In this document: positions 36,127-43,715 of the stretch, piece by piece
Layout of the letters: each line of letters opens with the position of its first letter
Numbering within the stretch: position 1 is the first letter of the stretch
Origin: an archaeon
GTDB taxonomy: Archaea; Micrarchaeota; Micrarchaeia; Anstonellales; Anstonellaceae
DNA: 64,000 nucleotides
NCBI GenBank assembly: GCA_020056635.1
Contig: JAGVHI010000004.1
Location: 2,782-66,781 of the forward strand
Direction of reading: 5' to 3'
Program-made: the position numbers and the translations under genes
Notes under the pieces: generated by a model
The model's database searches: none
What the model saw: only the letters and a program-made list of their open reading frames with translations
Told to the model about the DNA's origin: nothing

Positions 36127-36200
36127 CGACAAAAAAACTATCGTTCAGTCGAAAAAAAACTATCGTTCAGTCGAAAAAAAACTATCGATGCCTCGAAAAC
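36127..36200. repeat. About 3.4 tandem copies of a 22-bp unit (tcgaaaaaaaactatcgttcag)
   Basis: Units at 36127-36148 (diverged 5' end), 36149-36170, 36171-36192 (diverged 3' end) and a partial unit at 36193-36200 that runs into the att-like repeat. Confidence 0.9.
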
Positions 36201-36347
36201 CAGGTGAGGGAATCGAGTGCTAGGAGGTTAGGTTTTTCTCTCTCTACCTCATAAAAGCCCTATTCTTTTGCCCTCTTTCGCCCTGCTAGGCTGCCAATTA
36301 GGGTGAAACTACCCCGAAGAATGGCTTATTTACTCCCTGAAATTCAT

Positions 36348-36686
36348 CTATATCCAGCTTTGTTGTTTGGTTTTCCGCTTTGCCTTGCGTTTCTTGGGTT
36401 TATAGACACCGAATTTTTTTTGTGCAGCCGCAAGTCCTAATTTATTCTTTAGTCTGTTGCAGCTTCGATGCGCCCACTTAACCGTCTTCCCACCTTTCGC
36501 AAATGCCCGCACATGGTCTAACTCCGCGGCATCAAATGAAGTTATGCGACGAAAGCAAATATGACACATGTGGGAGTATAACATCCAGAGTTTCAGCTTT
36601 AATGCGGGAGATATTGCCTTGCGCTTTTTCTTCTCTTTGGGTTTAAACGGATTCCGTTTGAACGGACTATTTATTTTCATAACCAT
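36348..36686 (-). CDS. HNH endonuclease-family protein with basic N- and C-terminal tails
   Basis: 'CHICFRRITSFDAAELDHVRAFAKGGKTVKWAHRSCNRLKNK' shows a C-x2-C ... D-H ... H-x2-C-N HNH/ββα-Me signature. Confidence 0.7.
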   Translation of the reverse strand: MVMKINSPFKRNPFKPKEKKKRKAISPALKLKLWMLYSHMCHICFRRITSFDAAELDHVRAFAKGGKTVKWAHRSCNRLKNKLGLAAAQKKFGVYKPKKRKAKRKTKQQSWI

Positions 36687-37545
36687 ACCAACCACCTCGA
36701 TTTACAGTAATACTACAATTACCAAGAATACTTTCATCTAAAAATATTTCAGAACGATCCATATAAAATTCGTTGCTCGGTACGCCTTTCTGAATGTGGA
36801 AATATATTCCTTGTTTTGCTTCATTAAGTGTATCTTCATATGATAAGGTTCTTTGCTTATTGCTCTCGATTTTAGCAGTTAAACATCCTTCTTCATCACA
36901 TGCATAGATAGAAAGTTCCTTGCCAATAAATATTTGACTTCCTGCCAAGCCTGTTCCACAACGAAAGATAATTAGTGCAGTACTGCGATTTGCCCCTCTA
37001 ATATCCATGATAATACTAACTTTTTTAGTGGATACCGTATTATTCATAAATTTTGAGAATGGTACTGTTTCATTTGCAGGTTTTGCAAGTTGTTTAGATA
37101 AACTTTCTCCTTGGAAAAAGAGAAGAAAGAGAAATTCACCTATTCCTAAAATTATTAATAATATGAATATAGATGCGCATACCCAATACATACCATCCCA
37201 AATCCAACTGGGCAAGCCAGCTTTGCGTTTGCCTTCTGTTAGGCATTTAACTTCATATAGAAGGTCTGCACGCGTATTTATTCCACCTATCAGAACCGCT
37301 ATAACGACCACAAATGGAAGAAAGAAAAAAGATATGATTGTTTTTAGCCATTTAGTATCTGATTTAAATTCTAAAAATTGGAGATTGTTATCTATTTTAG
37401 CTTTGACGCGCCTAAAAACATACTCCCGCGTAAAACTGCAACTCCCATCAGAATAATGTATTATGTCCTTGAAACCATACTTACCATCCAAGACTGAGAA
37501 TTTGACTGATGATGCGTGTGGAATTTGGTCTGAACGCTCCTTCAT
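36667..37545 (-). CDS. Membrane protein of unknown function (2-3 TM plus a C-terminal soluble domain) within the islet
   Basis: 292 aa with TM segments 'TIISFFFLPFVVVIAVLIGGI' and 'MYWVCASIFILLIILGIGEFLFLLFF'. GGGGTGGAG precedes the ATG, and codon usage is AT-rich. Confidence 0.55.
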   Translation of the reverse strand: MKERSDQIPHASSVKFSVLDGKYGFKDIIHYSDGSCSFTREYVFRRVKAKIDNNLQFLEFKSDTKWLKTIISFFFLPFVVVIAVLIGGINTRADLLYEVKCLTEGKRKAGLPSWIWDGMYWVCASIFILLIILGIGEFLFLLFFQGESLSKQLAKPANETVPFSKFMNNTVSTKKVSIIMDIRGANRSTALIIFRCGTGLAGSQIFIGKELSIYACDEEGCLTAKIESNKQRTLSYEDTLNEAKQGIYFHIQKGVPSNEFYMDRSEIFLDESILGNCSITVNRGGWYGYENK

Positions 37546-37733
37546 TACTCCACCCCATAAGGGTTAAACAAACAGGGCTTTATACGCCTTTCTCTAAGAC
37601 GTGCTAGGCTGCCTTATTTACTGAAAGACTATTTCAAAACAAAGACTAAAATATTGGTTTTATGGCTTTTACGTCGGTAAATCGGATAAACTGAACCTGG
37701 CGTTTTCTATTCTCCGACGTAAAAATAACTTTA

Positions 37734-37825
37734 AGCCAGGTGAGGGAATCGAACCCCCCTAAGCCGCTTTCCGCACTTGCAGATAAATGCTGCAGGCGGC
37801 TGCATAGCCTCTCTGCCAACCTGGC
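37734..37825 (-). tRNA. tRNA-Cys (anticodon GCA) with a 21-nt intron at the canonical 37/38 position
   Basis: Folded by hand. Acceptor GCCAGGT/ACCTGGC, discriminator U73 (a Cys identity element), anticodon stem GCCGC/GCGGC, loop CTGCAG^[intron]^A, T stem GGGGG/CCCTC with loop TTCGATT. The intron, catttatctgcaagtgcggaa, is at 37769-37789. Confidence 0.85.
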
Positions 37826-37879: not shown

Positions 37880-39055
37880 CTAGGCAGGTTTGCCGAAGAC
37901 CGCTCCATATCCGTGCTCCGTTGCAACAAATGATGCGGCTGCAACTACGAGCGCTGCGCGCTCGCCTGCGGCGACCATCCGCTCTTCTTGTTCGCATGTG
38001 GGATAGCCCTCTCCTGGAACTGGCCCGATTTTTATGTAAATTGCCCCAGTCTGCATTAGGGCGGAACTATTTTCCATATTGATTTTTGCACCTTCCAGGT
38101 TCAGCATGATGCCTTCCATTTCTGTTGATTTGCAGCCGTGGTCATCATGGAGGTGATGTATCAGATGCGTGGACATGTGCTCGGTATAGAGATAATCCTT
38201 TGAAACTGCATTTCCGATTTCGATCTTAGGGCTTGAGCTGCCACCCATAATAGCTTGGCCTGTCCGGAAAAGGGTATCGACCAAACTCGGAGTACTCCTT
38301 GTTTTTGCCCACGCAAATCCCCCTACATTAATGATTTTGAAACCGTCATCATAGGAGAGGAACTCGCGCACGAATTCCTCGAAGTGTGACTTGCCGGCAA
38401 GGCCCTTGAGTGCATCTGCAACCCGGGCGATTTTTGAATACAGCATCGTGCCAAGCGGCTTGTTCACCGCGCTTGCGATAGCATCGGCACGGGCAATATG
38501 ATTTTCGGCAACTACCAAGTCCCCAGACTCAAGCCAGGGGGCCGTAGGATCTGCGCTGTTTTTTCCAAGCAGGCCGCCTGACGTGCCCACCCGCACGATG
38601 ATTGTGCCATTATGCCCCAGTTTTTTCCCATTGAATGTGTATCCGGCCGTGCAGGAATAACCTGCGATTTCCCGGACGTATATTTGGGTGGGCGGAAACC
38701 CCATTTCAGTCGAGGCTAGGAGGATCGGCACTTGATAGCCGTTGAAAGAGTAGGTGCCTACGATAACTGGGACCCGTTCGCGGTCGTTTCGCCGCCCGGT
38801 GAGATTCGGAACTATTTCATCAAGGACGATGGCGTCTCTGAGAGCGAGGGCATCATAAGCGTCTTCCACACGGTTCCTTGAGCCAAAAATGATGGCAAAC
38901 GGCGGCCCGCCTGCAGGGCTGAAGTACCGCGCTATTCTGGAATCAGATTCCCACAATTTCTTGTTGAATATGGCGATAAGGGCAGTGTGCGGCCCGCGGA
39001 CATCGGAATTGGGCTGTTTTGTGTCGGTGCGGGTCCTAGAGATAATCATAAGCAT
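37880..39055 (-). CDS. Nucleoside phosphorylase-superfamily (PNP/UDP-type) protein, unusually long
   Basis: 'STEMGFPPTQIYVREI', 'IIVRVGTSGGL', 'SGDLVV' and 'STEMEGIML' parallel the conserved phosphate/ribose-binding motifs of PNP_UDP_1-family enzymes. Confidence 0.55.
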   Translation of the reverse strand: MLMIISRTRTDTKQPNSDVRGPHTALIAIFNKKLWESDSRIARYFSPAGGPPFAIIFGSRNRVEDAYDALALRDAIVLDEIVPNLTGRRNDRERVPVIVGTYSFNGYQVPILLASTEMGFPPTQIYVREIAGYSCTAGYTFNGKKLGHNGTIIVRVGTSGGLLGKNSADPTAPWLESGDLVVAENHIARADAIASAVNKPLGTMLYSKIARVADALKGLAGKSHFEEFVREFLSYDDGFKIINVGGFAWAKTRSTPSLVDTLFRTGQAIMGGSSSPKIEIGNAVSKDYLYTEHMSTHLIHHLHDDHGCKSTEMEGIMLNLEGAKINMENSSALMQTGAIYIKIGPVPGEGYPTCEQEERMVAAGERAALVVAAASFVATEHGYGAVFGKPA

Positions 39056-39163: not shown

Positions 39164-40234
39164 ATGGAAGTCGTTCCAGCAACCGTGCTTGATGCGTCAG
39201 AGCCTGTTTCCAAAGCCGCGTCCGAGATTACGAAGAACGGGACCCTCGTGATTGTGACAAAGGGGAAGAGGTACCACGGGATTATTGATGACAGGGCGCT
39301 TCGCAATTCGAGGAACGACACCTCGAAAACCAAGTGCGAGGCGCTCTGCGAGCGCGCGCCGTTCGTGAAGATAAATGACACGCTAGTTGAAATATGCAAG
39401 GCATTTTTTGCCGGGAGGTTCAGCGCGCTTCCCGTCGTGAGCGGGAATACCATAGAGGGCGTGATAACCCGGGCTGATGTGATAAAGCTGCTGCTTGCAG
39501 AAAAGCTGCTTGATGGGAAAAAGGTGTCCGAGGCAATGAGCTCCCCTGTGCTCACGATTGCGCACAATGCGGGGATGGGCACTGCGCGAAAGCTTATGAG
39601 GGAGAAGAACGTGCGGCGGCTCGTGGTGACCAAGAACGAGAGGCTTGCAGGGATAATATCGACTTTCGATTTGGCATCTATAGCGGCGCATGAGCGCGAT
39701 GTGAGGCCGTCGGGAATGAGCGAAAAGTACAGCGCAGAGAAGGAATGGGTGGAGCGGTTCATGCGAGATTCGATTGAAACCATCACGCCAGACGCGCCCC
39801 TAGGCGACGCGGCAAGGAAAATGCTGGACACGAAAGTTGCGTCCGTGGTCGTCGTAGGCGGGGGGAAGGCAGTCGGGATAATCACTGCAAAGGACCTGTT
39901 CGAAACTGCGCTGGTGCTAAAGGAGGCGGACAGGGTTTTCATTTCCGGCTTGCACGACTTGGAGAAGGAATATTACCACGAGGTGCACGAGGAGTGCGAG
40001 AAAACGCTTTCCAAGCTCTCGAAAATCGAGAGGATTGGCTCGCTTGCGCTGCATATCAAGAAATACGGGAACCAGTATGCCATACATGCGAGGCTGAATG
40101 CAAGGCAGCTCACAACCGCAAGCGCAAACGGGTTTGATTTGCACGCATGCGTCGCGCAGGTGCTGGAGGAATTAAAAACACAGGTGGAAAAAAGGAAACC
40201 TAACAAGATGCATGAAAGAGGGCATAGAAGATGA
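39164..40234 (+). CDS. Protein with four CBS domains and a C-terminal HPF/RaiA-like (ribosome hibernation factor-like) domain
   Basis: Four CBS-like units (e.g. 'GIIDDRALR', 'GVITRADVIKLL', 'GIISTFDLASI', 'GIITAKDLFE'). The C-terminus 'VFISGLHDLEKEYYHEVHEECEKTLSKLSK...ALHIKKYGNQYAIHARLNARQLTTASANGFDLHACVAQVLEELKTQVEKRK' follows the HPF/RaiA pattern. Confidence 0.7.
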   Translation: MEVVPATVLDASEPVSKAASEITKNGTLVIVTKGKRYHGIIDDRALRNSRNDTSKTKCEALCERAPFVKINDTLVEICKAFFAGRFSALPVVSGNTIEGVITRADVIKLLLAEKLLDGKKVSEAMSSPVLTIAHNAGMGTARKLMREKNVRRLVVTKNERLAGIISTFDLASIAAHERDVRPSGMSEKYSAEKEWVERFMRDSIETITPDAPLGDAARKMLDTKVASVVVVGGGKAVGIITAKDLFETALVLKEADRVFISGLHDLEKEYYHEVHEECEKTLSKLSKIERIGSLALHIKKYGNQYAIHARLNARQLTTASANGFDLHACVAQVLEELKTQVEKRKPNKMHERGHRR

Positions 40235-40647
40235 AAAAAGCCCAGGTGAGCGCGGAGCTCCTAATAATTGTCGGGTTCATCGCGCTTGTGATGGTCCCGG
40301 TCCTTTTCTCAATATATGTTCGGGGCGGGGAATACAAGGATAGGATAGGGGTATCGCAGGTTAACATTGCCGCGGGAAGGATTGCGCAGGCAGTGGATTC
40401 GGTAGGGTTCCTCGGGGGCAGGGCGAAAATCGTGCTTGAGGTGCAGATGCCAAAGGGCGTGAGCGCCAGGGCGCAAGGAAAGGAGATCCTTTTCTCATTT
40501 GAGAACTCGGGGCAGAGGAACGACATTGTGAAAACAACCCGGTTTGCGATGAGCGCTCCAGACCTTGATAGGCTCAATGCGACCGGGACTTATTTTGTTG
40601 AAGTGATGAATGAGGATGGGATTGTGTCGCTCGATGTAAGGGAGTAG
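40231..40647 (+). CDS. Small class III signal peptide (archaeal type IV pilin-like) protein
   Basis: 'MKKA|QVSAELLIIVGFIALVMVPVLF' has Q+1, E+5 and a hydrophobic helix (DUF361-type Q-x-S-x-E motif). ATGA overlap with the upstream CBS gene. Confidence 0.6.
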   Translation: MKKAQVSAELLIIVGFIALVMVPVLFSIYVRGGEYKDRIGVSQVNIAAGRIAQAVDSVGFLGGRAKIVLEVQMPKGVSARAQGKEILFSFENSGQRNDIVKTTRFAMSAPDLDRLNATGTYFVEVMNEDGIVSLDVRE

Positions 40648-40667
40648 GGGCTGCCCGGTTGCAGGCT

Positions 40668-41984
40668 CTAGTAGGAGACCATCTTGCCAGAGCCCCTGCC
40701 CGCAAGAACATTGCCTGAATCGAACGCAAGCTCGCCGCGCACAATTGCCTTTGACACTTTGCCCCTAAGTTTCCTTCCTGAAAATGGGGACCACTTGCAC
40801 TTTGTGAAAAGCTCTTCGTTCTTCACAATCCATTCCTGCTTCGGGTCCACCAGGCAGAGGTCAGCATCAAAGCCCGGGAAAATCGAGCCCTTGAGCTTAA
40901 GGCCGAATATTTTTGCGGGAATGAGCGATGTCATTTTTGCGATTTGGGAAAGCGGAAGAGAGCCTGATTTGAAAGAGTAGTCAAGCAGAAGCGGGAGCGC
41001 TGTTTCAAGCCCGGGCACTCCGGAAGGCGCAAGCCTTACGGGCGTATTCGGAGAAGCCGAATCACGACCGGATGCGCCGGACTGCTTCTGTAGGAGGGTG
41101 TGGGGCGCGTGGTCCGTTGCAATAATGTCGATTTTGCCAAGCGAGGAGAGGAGCGATTTGCGGCCTGAATCGCCCCTGATTGGCGGGTTGGTCTGCGCAA
41201 GCGGCCCGAGAACCGCGATTTCCTTTTCAGAGAGGAACAGGTGGTGGGGAGTCACTTCGCAAGTGGCTTTGGGATAGGCGCGCACAAGCGAAACTTCCTG
41301 AGAAGAGGTAACGTGGCAGATGTGGACAGGGCGGGAGGCTGATTTGGCGCATGCGATTGCCGCTTTCACCCCTGCAATTGCCGCCTTTAGCCCTCGGAGC
41401 TCGTAATGCGAGCTGGCGCCCTTTGATTTTGCGAGGTCTATTTCCTCCTGGAGCTCGCAGTGCACAAGCACTGGGCGCGCTTTGGGGAATTTTTTCATGT
41501 GCGCCAAAAGCGATTTGGGGGGGATTGTAAGCTCGCTTCCGGTCTGGGCAAGGAACGCCTTTATCGAAAGCGGCTTTGCGCGCGAAACCTCTTCGAAATT
41601 GCCCGCGGTTGCGCCCATGTGAAGCCCGAAATCGCAAACTGCTTTTTTGGATGCAAGCGCGAGCTTCTCAAGGTATGCGCCCGCAGTAGTGGTCGGGGGG
41701 TTGCGGTAGTTTGGCATGTCCAGCACTGTGGTGAAGCCGCCTGCAAGCGCAGCGCATGTGCCTGTATAAAAATCCTCTTTTTCGGCTGCTTCAGGGTCGC
41801 GCAAGTGGACGTGGGAATCGATTAAGCCCGGGAAAACAAGCAGCCCCTCAGCATCGATTATTTCGTGCCCGGATGATTCGCGGGCGGCAATTCTCCCGAT
41901 TTTTTTGAATTTGCCGCCTTCAACCAATATGTCGGCCTCCGCGATTTTATCCGGGAGGATTAAGGTGCCGTTCTTTATCAGCAT
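40668..41984 (-). CDS. pyrC: Dihydroorotase
   Basis: 'PGLIDSHVHLRDP' (metal-binding HxH), 'DHAPH' and the overall amidohydrolase pattern. ATG at 41984 ('MLIKNGTLILPD'). Confidence 0.85.
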   Translation of the reverse strand: MLIKNGTLILPDKIAEADILVEGGKFKKIGRIAARESSGHEIIDAEGLLVFPGLIDSHVHLRDPEAAEKEDFYTGTCAALAGGFTTVLDMPNYRNPPTTTAGAYLEKLALASKKAVCDFGLHMGATAGNFEEVSRAKPLSIKAFLAQTGSELTIPPKSLLAHMKKFPKARPVLVHCELQEEIDLAKSKGASSHYELRGLKAAIAGVKAAIACAKSASRPVHICHVTSSQEVSLVRAYPKATCEVTPHHLFLSEKEIAVLGPLAQTNPPIRGDSGRKSLLSSLGKIDIIATDHAPHTLLQKQSGASGRDSASPNTPVRLAPSGVPGLETALPLLLDYSFKSGSLPLSQIAKMTSLIPAKIFGLKLKGSIFPGFDADLCLVDPKQEWIVKNEELFTKCKWSPFSGRKLRGKVSKAIVRGELAFDSGNVLAGRGSGKMVSY

Positions 41985-41995
41985 GAGACCAGCCG

Positions 41996-42766
41996 TCAAA
42001 TCGGGATGCGCTCGCTTGTCCGGTCGAGCTTTGTGGCCCCGAAATCCGCAAACGAAAGCGCTTCAATGCCGAACATCGGCCCATCGCGGCAAACCAGGCG
42101 GTCGCCAATCACGCACTGCCCGCAGACCCCGATTCCGCATTTCATGTACCGCTCAAGGAGCATCTGGCACCCTATTTTCCTATCCTTGCAAATCTCAGCG
42201 ATTGCCTTCATCATGCGCTCTGGGCCGCAGGTGAATATGGTGTCGAATTTTTCCCCTGAATCAAACAGCCCCAAAAGCGCATCTGTCACAAGCCCCTTTT
42301 TCCCAGAGCTGCCGTCGTTTGTGGTGATTATGGTTTCGCACCCTGCCGCAGGCCTAAGCAGCCAGTCCTTGTTCTTTGCGCCAAGGATGGCTTTTGTCTT
42401 TGCGCCTTTTTTCTGCATCTCCAAAAGAGCGTAGCGCACCGGGCCAAACCCGTACCCTCCGCCTATCCCGAGCACGGATTTTCCCTCGAGCCGAAAGCCT
42501 TTCCCAAGAGGGCCGCGAAGGAACATGCACTCGCCCTCCTTGTATTCATTCATGCGGATGCTTGCAGGCCCTATCCCGCAGATGGTGAGCGAAAGAGGGC
42601 GCGTACCTGAAACCGACATCGGCTTTTCCTCAAGCCCGGGGACCCAGACCATGTAGAACTGCCCAGGGATGGCGTATGACTGGTCATCGAAGTAGTATGT
42701 CTTCACGGTTTTGGTCTCCTGCTCGACCCGTGTTATCTTAGTAGGGGTGGGAAGCATCCGAACCAT
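41996..42766 (-). CDS. pyrK: Dihydroorotate dehydrogenase electron-transfer subunit
   Basis: FAD/NAD-binding ferredoxin-reductase-like 'GPLGKGF' and 'GGGYGFGP', plus the C-terminal 2Fe-2S cluster 'CGIGVCGQCVIGDRLVCRDGP'. Overlaps pyrD. Confidence 0.8.
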   Translation of the reverse strand: MVRMLPTPTKITRVEQETKTVKTYYFDDQSYAIPGQFYMVWVPGLEEKPMSVSGTRPLSLTICGIGPASIRMNEYKEGECMFLRGPLGKGFRLEGKSVLGIGGGYGFGPVRYALLEMQKKGAKTKAILGAKNKDWLLRPAAGCETIITTNDGSSGKKGLVTDALLGLFDSGEKFDTIFTCGPERMMKAIAEICKDRKIGCQMLLERYMKCGIGVCGQCVIGDRLVCRDGPMFGIEALSFADFGATKLDRTSERIPI

Positions 42767-43673
42767 CCTCTATCAGTTTCAAATCCTTAAGCGAACGGTA
42801 ATTGTTCTCTGACATGAATTTCTCAAGCTCCAAGCACAGGGAAGAGAATAGGTTTTCCCTGCCCATCGCAGCAGTGCCAACGCCGATTGCGTTCGCGCCT
42901 GCGCAGAACATTTCAGCAGCATCCTTCCCAACCGAGATTCCGCCTGTGCCTATTACCGGGATTTTAACCCCCCTCCTCCGGATTTCCCAAACAGCCTTTA
43001 GCGCAACAGGCTTAATGAGCGAGCCTGAGAGCCCGCCCACCTTGTTTGAGAGCAGCGGGCGGCGCGCGATCGGGTCTATGAACATCCCGCCAACCGTGTT
43101 TATTGCCGTGATGCAGTCTGCGCCTGCAGCCTCAACCGCATGCGCAATTTCTGCGATGTCGGTGACATTGGGAGAGAGCTTGATTGAAATCGGGATTGAG
43201 GTTGCTTTTTTCACTGCGTGGGTGACATCTGCCGCATCAGGCGCACATGCGGAGAACATCCTCCCTTCGTTCGCAACATTCGGGCAGGAGATGTTCACCT
43301 CTATCATTTCTGGCTCTGCTTCAGAAATGCGGTAGGCAAGCTCGTAGAAATCCTCAACCGACTGCGCGAATACGCTTGCAATTATCGGGACGCCTGCTGC
43401 GCGCTTTGCGGCTTTCAGCTCCTTAATCTCCGCATCGATGCCAGGGCCTGAGAGCCCTACTGCGTTCAGCATGATGCCGCCGTGGAAAACCACAGTGGGG
43501 TTCGGGTGCCCAAGCCTGGGGGCAAGCGAAACCGATTTGGAAGTGACTGCGCCAGCCCCTTCTTTTGCTGCGCGCACTAGCAAGGCAGAATTGAGGTCCC
43601 TTATGCCAGAGGCCAGTATGAAGGGGTTGTGGAGGGTTATGCCGCACAGGCTTGTTTCAAGCACGCTTGCCAT
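42738..43673 (-). CDS. pyrD: Dihydroorotate dehydrogenase catalytic subunit (class 1B)
   Basis: 'LHNPFILASG', 'IEVNISCPN', 'NTVGGM', 'GGLSG..IKP' and 'IGTGGI' are classical PyrD motifs. Confidence 0.9.
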   Translation of the reverse strand: MASVLETSLCGITLHNPFILASGIRDLNSALLVRAAKEGAGAVTSKSVSLAPRLGHPNPTVVFHGGIMLNAVGLSGPGIDAEIKELKAAKRAAGVPIIASVFAQSVEDFYELAYRISEAEPEMIEVNISCPNVANEGRMFSACAPDAADVTHAVKKATSIPISIKLSPNVTDIAEIAHAVEAAGADCITAINTVGGMFIDPIARRPLLSNKVGGLSGSLIKPVALKAVWEIRRRGVKIPVIGTGGISVGKDAAEMFCAGANAIGVGTAAMGRENLFSSLCLELEKFMSENNYRSLKDLKLIEDGSDASHPY

Positions 43674-43715
43674 AGTTTGACCTATTCTCCCGGATTGTTT
43701 AAAACCGCTGCCATT

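Follow-up and report, generated by a model that had tools for sequence, protein, structure and literature searches.

The window analysed here is a 64-kb stretch (positions 2782–66781) of contig C20 from the metagenome-assembled genome (MAG) of a Micrarchaeia archaeon (DPANN), an assembly of 1.10 Mb in 27 contigs with a guanine-plus-cytosine (GC) content of 52% and an estimated completeness of 79%. DPANN archaea have tiny genomes, and how they acquire genes is little understood. Within this window a short AT-rich islet lies on the 3' side of a tRNA-Cys gene, bounded by the tRNA 3' part and a displaced duplicate of it, and encodes two proteins, a predicted small HNH nuclease and a membrane protein of 292 amino acids (aa). 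In what follows, positions without a prefix refer to the window, C-numbered positions are contigs of the same assembly, and L and G numbers denote loci and genomes of relatives. The features that define the locus are listed below, with the strand where a feature has one.

37734–37825, minus strand: tRNA-Cys(GCA) gene, called by ARAGORN with introns allowed, discriminator U73.
37733–37752: proximal att-type repeat, made up of the end of the T-loop, the 3' strand of the T-stem, the 3' strand of the acceptor stem, U73 and one further nucleotide (nt).
36197–36216: distal att-type repeat, apparently a displaced partial tRNA 3' end, 19 of 20 positions identical, C72 changed to T.
36217–37735: AT-rich islet proper, 1,519 bp, GC 0.38.
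36667–37545, minus strand: gene for the 292-aa chimeric membrane protein, with two modules of separate families.
36348–36695, minus strand: gene for the predicted small HNH (His-Me finger) nuclease, 110–115 aa, with KKRK-rich N- and C-terminal tails.

An earlier interpretation made from the letters of this DNA alone (the sequence-only reading) had reported a 17-bp duplication of the tRNA-Cys 3' part at a distance of 1,536 bp, AT-rich DNA between the copies, an HNH-like open reading frame (ORF) next to a 292-aa ORF, and a second, nested pair of repeats, and all of these are indeed present, the HNH-like ORF with 115 aa.

The tRNA-Cys gene is missed by ARAGORN in its default setting and by Rfam owing to its intron. 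When introns were allowed, ARAGORN returned a complete cloverleaf with a GCA anticodon and U73, interrupted by an intron of 21 nt in the canonical region of the anticodon loop (approximately 37769–37791), so that the target gene is intact. A second 'Cys' call in the assembly, on contig C9, is not credible on account of its long variable arm and its discriminator A, and 37734–37825 is therefore the single-copy tRNA-Cys of the assembly. Homologous tRNA-Cys genes were found in 40 of the 42 genomes of the family. Across the tRNA-Cys loci L023–L052, which belong to genomes of one family, the intron of the anticodon loop is either absent or between 17 and about 122 nt long, and the 3' 22 nt are nearly invariant despite this variation; ARAGORN often mislabels the copies with long introns as other tRNAs.

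The word CCAGGTGAGGGAATCGA, 17 nt in length, occurs exactly at 36200–36216 and at 37736–37752, in direct orientation, and the match extends to 20 nt (36197–36216 vs. 37733–37752). The distal copy is on the 3' side of tRNA-Cys, which is itself whole, and upstream of this copy the identity with the tRNA breaks off abruptly inside the T-loop. Position 72 is C in all relatives and T in the distal copy, a change that would fit a displaced copy freed from selection. Two matches to the 17-mer were observed in the window as compared to 0.02 expected, and the chance that any tRNA word is so repeated within 3 kb is about 1e-5. The possibility that the word is a common motif, which the sequence-only reading had itself raised, is answered by the count in the 1.1-Mb assembly: there are just two copies, even with up to two mismatches allowed. 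That the repeat arose by chance, or that the locus is an assembly chimera, has to be considered for a MAG in 27 contigs. We regard this as scarcely credible, given that the repeat is far beyond chance, that the islet is placed centrally in a contig of 94 kb, that tRNA-Cys is sole and intact, and that one domain encoded in the islet has its sister in the same genome (see below).

The GC content between the repeat copies (0.38) is well separated from that of the two flanks (0.544 and 0.525), and the islet is one of 12 patches of at least 600 bp with GC below 40% in the genome. GC at third codon positions (GC3) is 0.26 in the 292-aa gene, with 0.20 in its C-terminal part, and 0.47 in the HNH gene, as compared to 0.56–0.68 in neighbouring and paralogous native genes, on which grounds the islet is foreign in composition. 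The two genes are intact and co-oriented, on the same strand as the tRNA, and the possible starts of the HNH gene overlap the stop of the 292-aa gene by 12–29 nt. They occupy 36348–37545, which leaves non-coding ends of 131 and 190 nt; these ends are AT-rich too (GC 0.37–0.45).

Hydropathy analysis of the 292-aa protein gives two transmembrane (TM) segments, TM1 at about aa 69–89 and TM2 at about aa 119–144, so that of the two to three segments proposed earlier the third was not recovered. An exhaustive HMMER scan showed that the protein is a fusion whose two families otherwise occur apart. The N-module (about aa 9–122) comprises a soluble part, TM1 and an NTRxDLxYEV motif, and matches small proteins of 95–142 aa that have one TM helix and the same motif. 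Stand-alone N-module genes form AT-rich single-gene patches in other DPANN genomes. At one such locus (L053:4680-5340) a 142-aa homolog, with GC 0.32–0.39 in a genome of 0.53, is bracketed by an imperfect direct repeat of about 44 nt and followed by AT-rich small membrane ORFs.

The C-module (about aa 125–284) consists of TM2 and a Cys-containing alpha/beta domain, and belongs to a family whose members, about 160 aa long, carry an N-terminal TM helix together with conserved cysteines. Of 41 relatives, 35 have this family, and the source genome itself has a paralog of native GC content at C11:48950-49429. In the maximum-likelihood tree the C-module of the islet is sister to this own-genome paralog (support 98/92), although GC3 is 0.20 in the islet copy vs. 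0.66 in the host gene. The donor was therefore the organism's own lineage or something living with it, and the placement would fit capture of the C-module by a lineage-specific element. The C-domain was modelled by AlphaFold2 (AF2) with a predicted local distance difference test score (pLDDT) above 95, and a fold search of the PDB gave no match at E<0.05. The gene for this membrane-anchored protein of some 160 aa adjoins, in the source genome (C11:46736-49429) and in 35 of the 41 relatives, one for a protein of about 710–737 aa (737 aa in the source genome) with a similar terminal domain; the two make up a core envelope pair of the order, as yet uncharacterised.

The nuclease assignment of the second protein is a prediction. 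The Pfam HNH profile matches it with E=0.019 and 15.5 bits, under the curated cut-off of 21.4, and HNH families of PHROG match with E=3e-4 to 0.03. The residues C44, H45, C47, D60, H61, G68, G69, C79 and N80 are invariant in 5–7 homologs, and the family motif CHxC...DH...GG...(H/C)xSCNRLK is kept between the KKRK-rich tails. A 16-nt near-repeat (14 of 16 positions; 36380–36395 and 36614–36629) encodes KKRKA in both basic tails and points to an internal duplication of the tail. By sequence, the nearest solved structure is 4H9D, with a marginal E=0.11 and with the motif residues aligned; the AF2 model has a mean pLDDT of 58.7, too low to judge the beta-beta-alpha-metal fold. The protein of this structure, Gmet_0936 of Geobacter metallireducens, is similar in length (about 110 aa), in its basic N-terminal part and in the order CxxC...DH...GG...CN. 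The islet protein differs from it in the second zinc pair, (H/C)xxC, in the long KKRK C-terminal tail and in belonging to a family restricted to few DPANN genomes. The ratio of non-synonymous to synonymous substitution rates (dN/dS) with respect to the closest homolog (L014) is about 0.29, which indicates purifying selection.

Two intact, overlapping and co-oriented genes could be read as a defence- or toxin-like pair of nuclease and membrane effector that is kept for its function, as the sequence-only reading had proposed in its alternative, and a predicted membrane protein indeed neighbours the HNH homolog in three other loci. Those inspected at L013 (131 aa) and L015 (304 aa) are not homologous to the 292-aa protein, and hence there is no conserved nuclease-effector pair. 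The 292-aa protein found no fitting family in Pfam, PHROG, PADLOC or NCBIfam, and both proteins gave 0 families in PADLOC-DB at E up to 1. Moreover, the HNH gene stands alone in most genomes, and the C-module has its paralog in a conserved envelope protein and not in a known effector. The proposal thus finds no support, and we consider it very unlikely.

The HNH family is rare and patchy: it is represented by four clusters among 5.8 billion proteins, by three loci in GTDB species genomes, and by a single copy in each of 11 of the 401 genomes of the phylum (11 of 155 genera). The closest homolog, 72% identical, is found on a metagenome contig of 2 kb, where a Phage_integrase gene for 246 aa (Pfam E=9e-29) precedes it by 200 bp. 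In genome G030 (locus L013) an AT-rich patch of 0.9 kb holds the homolog and separates a gene of 4,017 aa from the 3' end of tRNA-Ser(GCT); in G004 (locus L021), of the same family as the source, the homolog is 326 nt 3' of tRNA-Ser(TGA). Taken with the locus studied here, three of the four closest members with usable flanks have the HNH gene 0.3–1.1 kb 3' of a tRNA. A distant homolog on an Aenigmatarchaeota contig is 1.3 kb from tRNA-Tyr. The remaining homologs mostly stand alone and form gene-sized GC dips, and bracketing repeats above chance were not found around the HNH homologs elsewhere.

The congeneric genomes G030 and G038 allow the comparison of one spacer with and without the gene. 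They have two anchors in common, tRNA-Ser (86% identity) and the terminal part of the giant gene (80%), which are about 255 nt apart in G038, with no HNH gene, and about 1,015 nt apart in G030, where the HNH gene is present. The G030 patch (L013:5960-6976) carries the HNH gene and the 131-aa gene between the 4,017-aa gene and tRNA-Ser(GCT)/signal recognition particle (SRP) RNA, and is absent from G038 (L085, G038:C142). The HNH gene has thus demonstrably been gained or lost at a tRNA flank between these genomes. A giant surface-protein gene adjoins the HNH islet both here and in G030. The G038 spacer holds a tandem duplication, of about 56 nt, of the tRNA trailer.

The G030/G038 comparison is the chief argument for a rival origin, in which the HNH protein would be a free-standing homing-type endonuclease cutting at or close to tRNA 3' ends, double-strand-break repair would have inserted the cassette, and the duplicate of 17–20 nt would be a by-product of an illegitimate first invasion. 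The rarity and patchiness of the family, its gene-sized GC dips, its tRNA-proximal loci, the selection on its sequence and the G030/G038 difference all speak for it. Phage T4 provides a parallel in SegB, a free-standing GIY-YIG homing endonuclease with its gene in the T4 tRNA cluster, beside its target. The islet HNH gene is alike in being a small, patchy nuclease gene in spacers next to tRNAs; it differs in that the predicted nuclease is HNH rather than GIY-YIG, in that it lies in an archaeal chromosome rather than in a phage, and in the presence of an att-type duplicate and of an unrelated second gene. Homing does not normally create a direct repeat of 17–20 nt of its target, and it leaves the much more AT-rich 292-aa gene and the heptamer cluster described below unexplained. 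The family is tRNA-adjacent in just 4 of the 14 HNH loci with flanks, which is not significant (estimated P ~0.12), its closest homolog sits beside an integrase, and both the nuclease activity and its target are predictions. We therefore hold the homing origin to be unlikely.

The non-coding ends of the islet contain further repeats.

37602–37622: inner repeat R (TGCTAGGCTGCCTTATTTACT), 21 contiguous nt that precede the putative promoter of the 292-aa gene; contains heptamer copy 3.
36284–36334: inner repeat R', the same 21 nt as R, split by a 29-nt insert, 3' of the HNH gene; contains heptamer copy 2.
36218–36224, plus strand: heptamer copy 1, TGCTAGG, 1 nt from the distal core.
37667–37724: long hairpin whose arms of 16 nt are 88% complementary; it immediately follows the tRNA and a T5 run.

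The inner repeat is made up of TGCTAGGCTGCC and CTTATTTACT, and brackets both genes and the putative promoter of the 292-aa gene, for which we read a TATAAA about 40 nt before the ATG. No likeness was found between the non-coding regions that follow R and R', beyond the repeat itself, and the search for terminal inverted repeats pairing both islet ends, as in a transposon or miniature inverted-repeat transposable element (MITE), found none. The heptamer TGCTAGG is the first seven bases of the inner repeat. Its three same-strand copies, all in the non-coding ends, are the sole plus-strand copies in the window; from the genome-wide rate of 0.026 per kb per strand, three copies in 1.5 kb have a Poisson P ~1e-5. 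Two TGCTAGG copies elsewhere on C20, also spaced by 66 nt, were rejected as coincidental, since they are inside a coding region; a 14-nt match on C2 was rejected as a coincidence at a gene end; and the 8-nt acceptor-like word 'GCCAGGTT' after the tRNA sits in a hairpin loop and is probably due to chance.

Short duplicates (13–16 nt) of a tRNA's own 3' end, 69–146 nt downstream and with two hairpins between, were found at tRNA-Cys in three relatives (L033, L036, L045), at tRNA-Ser in L021 and at tRNA-Leu(TAA) in the source genome. Since they occur at several tRNAs, duplication of the tRNA 3' end is recurrent in the family. At C5:21177-21456, at L021:2779-2860 and in L033, L036 and L045 they are part of a module which, about 15–25 nt after the tRNA, has (C)TCGG, a TTTT-stem-AAAA hairpin, a 7-bp hairpin and the 13–16-nt copy of the 3' end; it could be a miniature integrated element or the scar of one. 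That this module is also part of the islet was rejected, because its profile finds only the tRNA-Leu copy in the source genome.

Such duplicates, and the fact that the inner repeat encloses just the promoter and the two genes, would suit an origin in two steps, with a short duplicate of the tRNA-Cys 3' end, set off by a small spacer, already in place and the two-gene cassette with its promoter inserted inside it later, R and R' marking the junction. The lack of the hairpin module in the islet speaks against this, as do the non-coding ends, which with their low GC content and heptamers look part of the foreign piece. Furthermore, the small duplicates are best explained by recombinase events, which makes this origin a variant of the integration proposed below and not a true alternative to it. 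We judge it improbable.

On the far side of the distal repeat lies one more feature that bears on the history of the locus.

36131–36196: 22-bp tandem array of three units, two identical and one 82%, outside the att-bounded islet and unique in the genome.

The array had been described earlier as 3.4 copies; the array itself is there, with three units. Read on the tRNA strand, it consists of TCGA...TAG units that end in T8, T8 and T7, and resembles the oligo-T trailers found right after tRNA-Cys in relatives. It is thus probably the native tRNA trailer with its terminators. It stands between the islet operon and the promoter of a 2,495-aa gene, for which we read a TTAAAAA about 30 nt before the ATG, and with T7–T8 runs on the transcribed strand this gene, whose expression the islet could influence according to the sequence-only reading, would be expected to be insulated from it.

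As already noted in the sequence-only reading, there is no integrase in the islet. An integrase split over the att copies, as in elements of the SSV (Sulfolobus spindle-shaped virus) type, is absent too: only a 56-aa ORF without a family match crosses the distal copy. Elsewhere, the genome has genes for three tyrosine recombinases of about 400 aa.

C20:92649-93803: tyrosine recombinase.
C12:4811-6004: tyrosine recombinase.
C4:1624-2823: tyrosine recombinase.

Between the C4 and C12 genes the DNA identity is 82%, and two further short segments are common to both, which suggests that they are two copies of one element type. A predicted tRNA-Leu with an intron has the C4 gene on its 3' side, and AT-rich patches lie beside two of the three integrases.

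The repeat geometry, the extent and uniqueness of the repeat, and the compositional boundary that coincides with it indicate site-specific integration at the tRNA 3' end. We conclude that the islet is best explained, with a probability of about 0.58, as the remnant or a non-autonomous derivative of an element of the tyrosine-recombinase type integrated at the 3' end of tRNA-Cys, with the HNH gene as a selfish passenger. Together with the tyrosine integrase beside the closest HNH homolog and the occurrence of tRNA-adjacent integrases in the genome, the same evidence supports the decayed or trans-mobilised integrative element that had been suggested from the sequence. Added support comes from the confinement of the TGCTAGG cluster to the non-coding ends of the islet and from the recurrence of short tRNA 3'-end duplicates in this genome and family. 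Within this explanation, we give a dead remnant about twice the probability of a satellite that can still be mobilised.

According to this explanation, the element would have integrated site-specifically at the 3' end of the single tRNA-Cys gene, and its attP copy would now complete the tRNA. The distal repeat would be the displaced native 3' end, with its C72 to T change, followed by the native oligo-T trailer, now seen as the 22-bp array. An integrase, like the remaining parts of the element, would have been deleted or never carried. In the usual attP layout, the arm-type sites of the recombinase are repeats of a short word, all in the same sense, on both sides of the core, and the TGCTAGG copies in the non-coding ends may be former sites of this kind. 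The surviving cargo would be a two-gene operon, with the chimeric membrane protein first and the HNH nuclease second. The ectodomain of the membrane protein may have been copied from the lineage's own conserved envelope protein, and then have drifted to the AT-richness of mobile elements. The HNH gene, being rare, patchy, found in small AT-rich patches and in several cases beside tRNAs, would behave as a selfish passenger.

Such an event agrees with what has been described for archaea, where tRNA 3' ends are the preferred targets of integrases and the gene is reconstituted, the commonest mode of integration for archaeal elements (PMC8371274); partial tRNA gene fragments left behind by integrative elements are also mentioned in the literature (PMC9897764). 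Like the archaeal tyrosine-recombinase elements and proviruses of the former review, the islet has a direct repeat of the tRNA 3' part at both borders, an intact tRNA, the insert on its 3' side and a core spanning the tRNA from its T-loop to its 3' end. Unlike them, it has no integrase, measures 1.5 kb with two genes, and contains no genes for replication, capsid or conjugation. Its host is also a DPANN archaeon, and the word 'DPANN' is absent from that review (PMC8371274). The islet differs from such elements further in that scans of metagenome contigs found neither an excised form nor an empty site. Marine Prochlorococcus reportedly has integrase-less cargo islands with partial tRNA copies at integration hot spots. 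The islet resembles these in its cargo of foreign composition beside a tRNA, in the partial tRNA repeat and in lacking a recombinase of its own, but it is a single small cassette rather than an array, is archaeal, and has no element with the same core visible in the genome. Integrative elements at tRNA sites of Prochlorococcus are treated in a preprint (bioRxiv 10.1101/2020.12.28.424599).

Several observations weigh against integration of such an element. No integrase or integrase fragment was found inside the islet, where no ORF matches Phage_integrase; the islet has room for no integrase fragments. No copy of the core is linked to any of the genomic integrases in this 79%-complete assembly, and since there is no other core copy in it, no helper of matching specificity is visible. 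The HNH locus of G030 has no att-type repeat, and no integrase within 8 kb, so the HNH gene can reach a tRNA flank without a tRNA duplicate. The islet is also internally mosaic, as judged from the GC3 of the HNH gene vs. that of the 292-aa gene. Viral contigs and phage and plasmid records yielded no relatives of the HNH or the 292-aa protein, apart from one marginal HNH match on a Clostridium plasmid. The comparison of related tRNA-Cys loci, which had been recommended as a check, speaks for integration instead: in 12 of 12 relatives the islet, the HNH gene, any homolog of the 292-aa protein and any integrase are absent within 8 kb of tRNA-Cys, so that the sharing of these genes at this place, named beforehand as a refutation, was not observed. 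The gene order around the tRNA differs in these relatives, with the neighbouring cluster on the opposite side and inverted, and because of this scrambled synteny their loci are not strict empty sites. Exact matches in metagenome contigs numbered 0, both for the pattern of the predicted empty site and for one across the exon/intron junction of the tRNA.

A live counterpart of this explanation would be a miniature integrase-less 'satellite' that retains a complete attP-like layout, with three TGCTAGG arm sites around a tRNA-Cys core, and is moved in trans by a Micrarchaeia integrase, with an HNH family that is specific to DPANN and homes to tRNA 3' flanks. We think it rather unlikely that the islet is of this kind. 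If it were, it would represent an unrecognised way for DPANN genomes to exchange single surface-protein genes at tRNA hot spots.

The genes on the 5' side of tRNA-Cys complete the picture of the locus. A 391-aa gene at 37880–39055 (minus strand) has native composition, is present in only 3 of 41 related genomes, and has as its sole family signal a faint resemblance to DeoD-type purine-nucleoside phosphorylases. Beyond it, a CBS-domain cluster (39164–43700) is 5' of tRNA-Cys here, and 3' of it in the opposite orientation in L062 and L067, and this implies that the DNA around the tRNA was inverted or rearranged locally.

Events of the type proposed for this locus are ordinary and amply documented from other archaea. 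The unusual points are the length of only 1.5 kb, the lack of an integrase and the retention of both genes intact. Read as an integrated element, the locus has a Micrarchaeia genome using a classic tRNA 3'-end integration site, and the cargo that persists there is a membrane-protein gene from the host's own envelope family together with a rare selfish nuclease. If similar islets prove to be common, tRNA flanks would be places where these symbionts swap variants of their cell-surface proteins.

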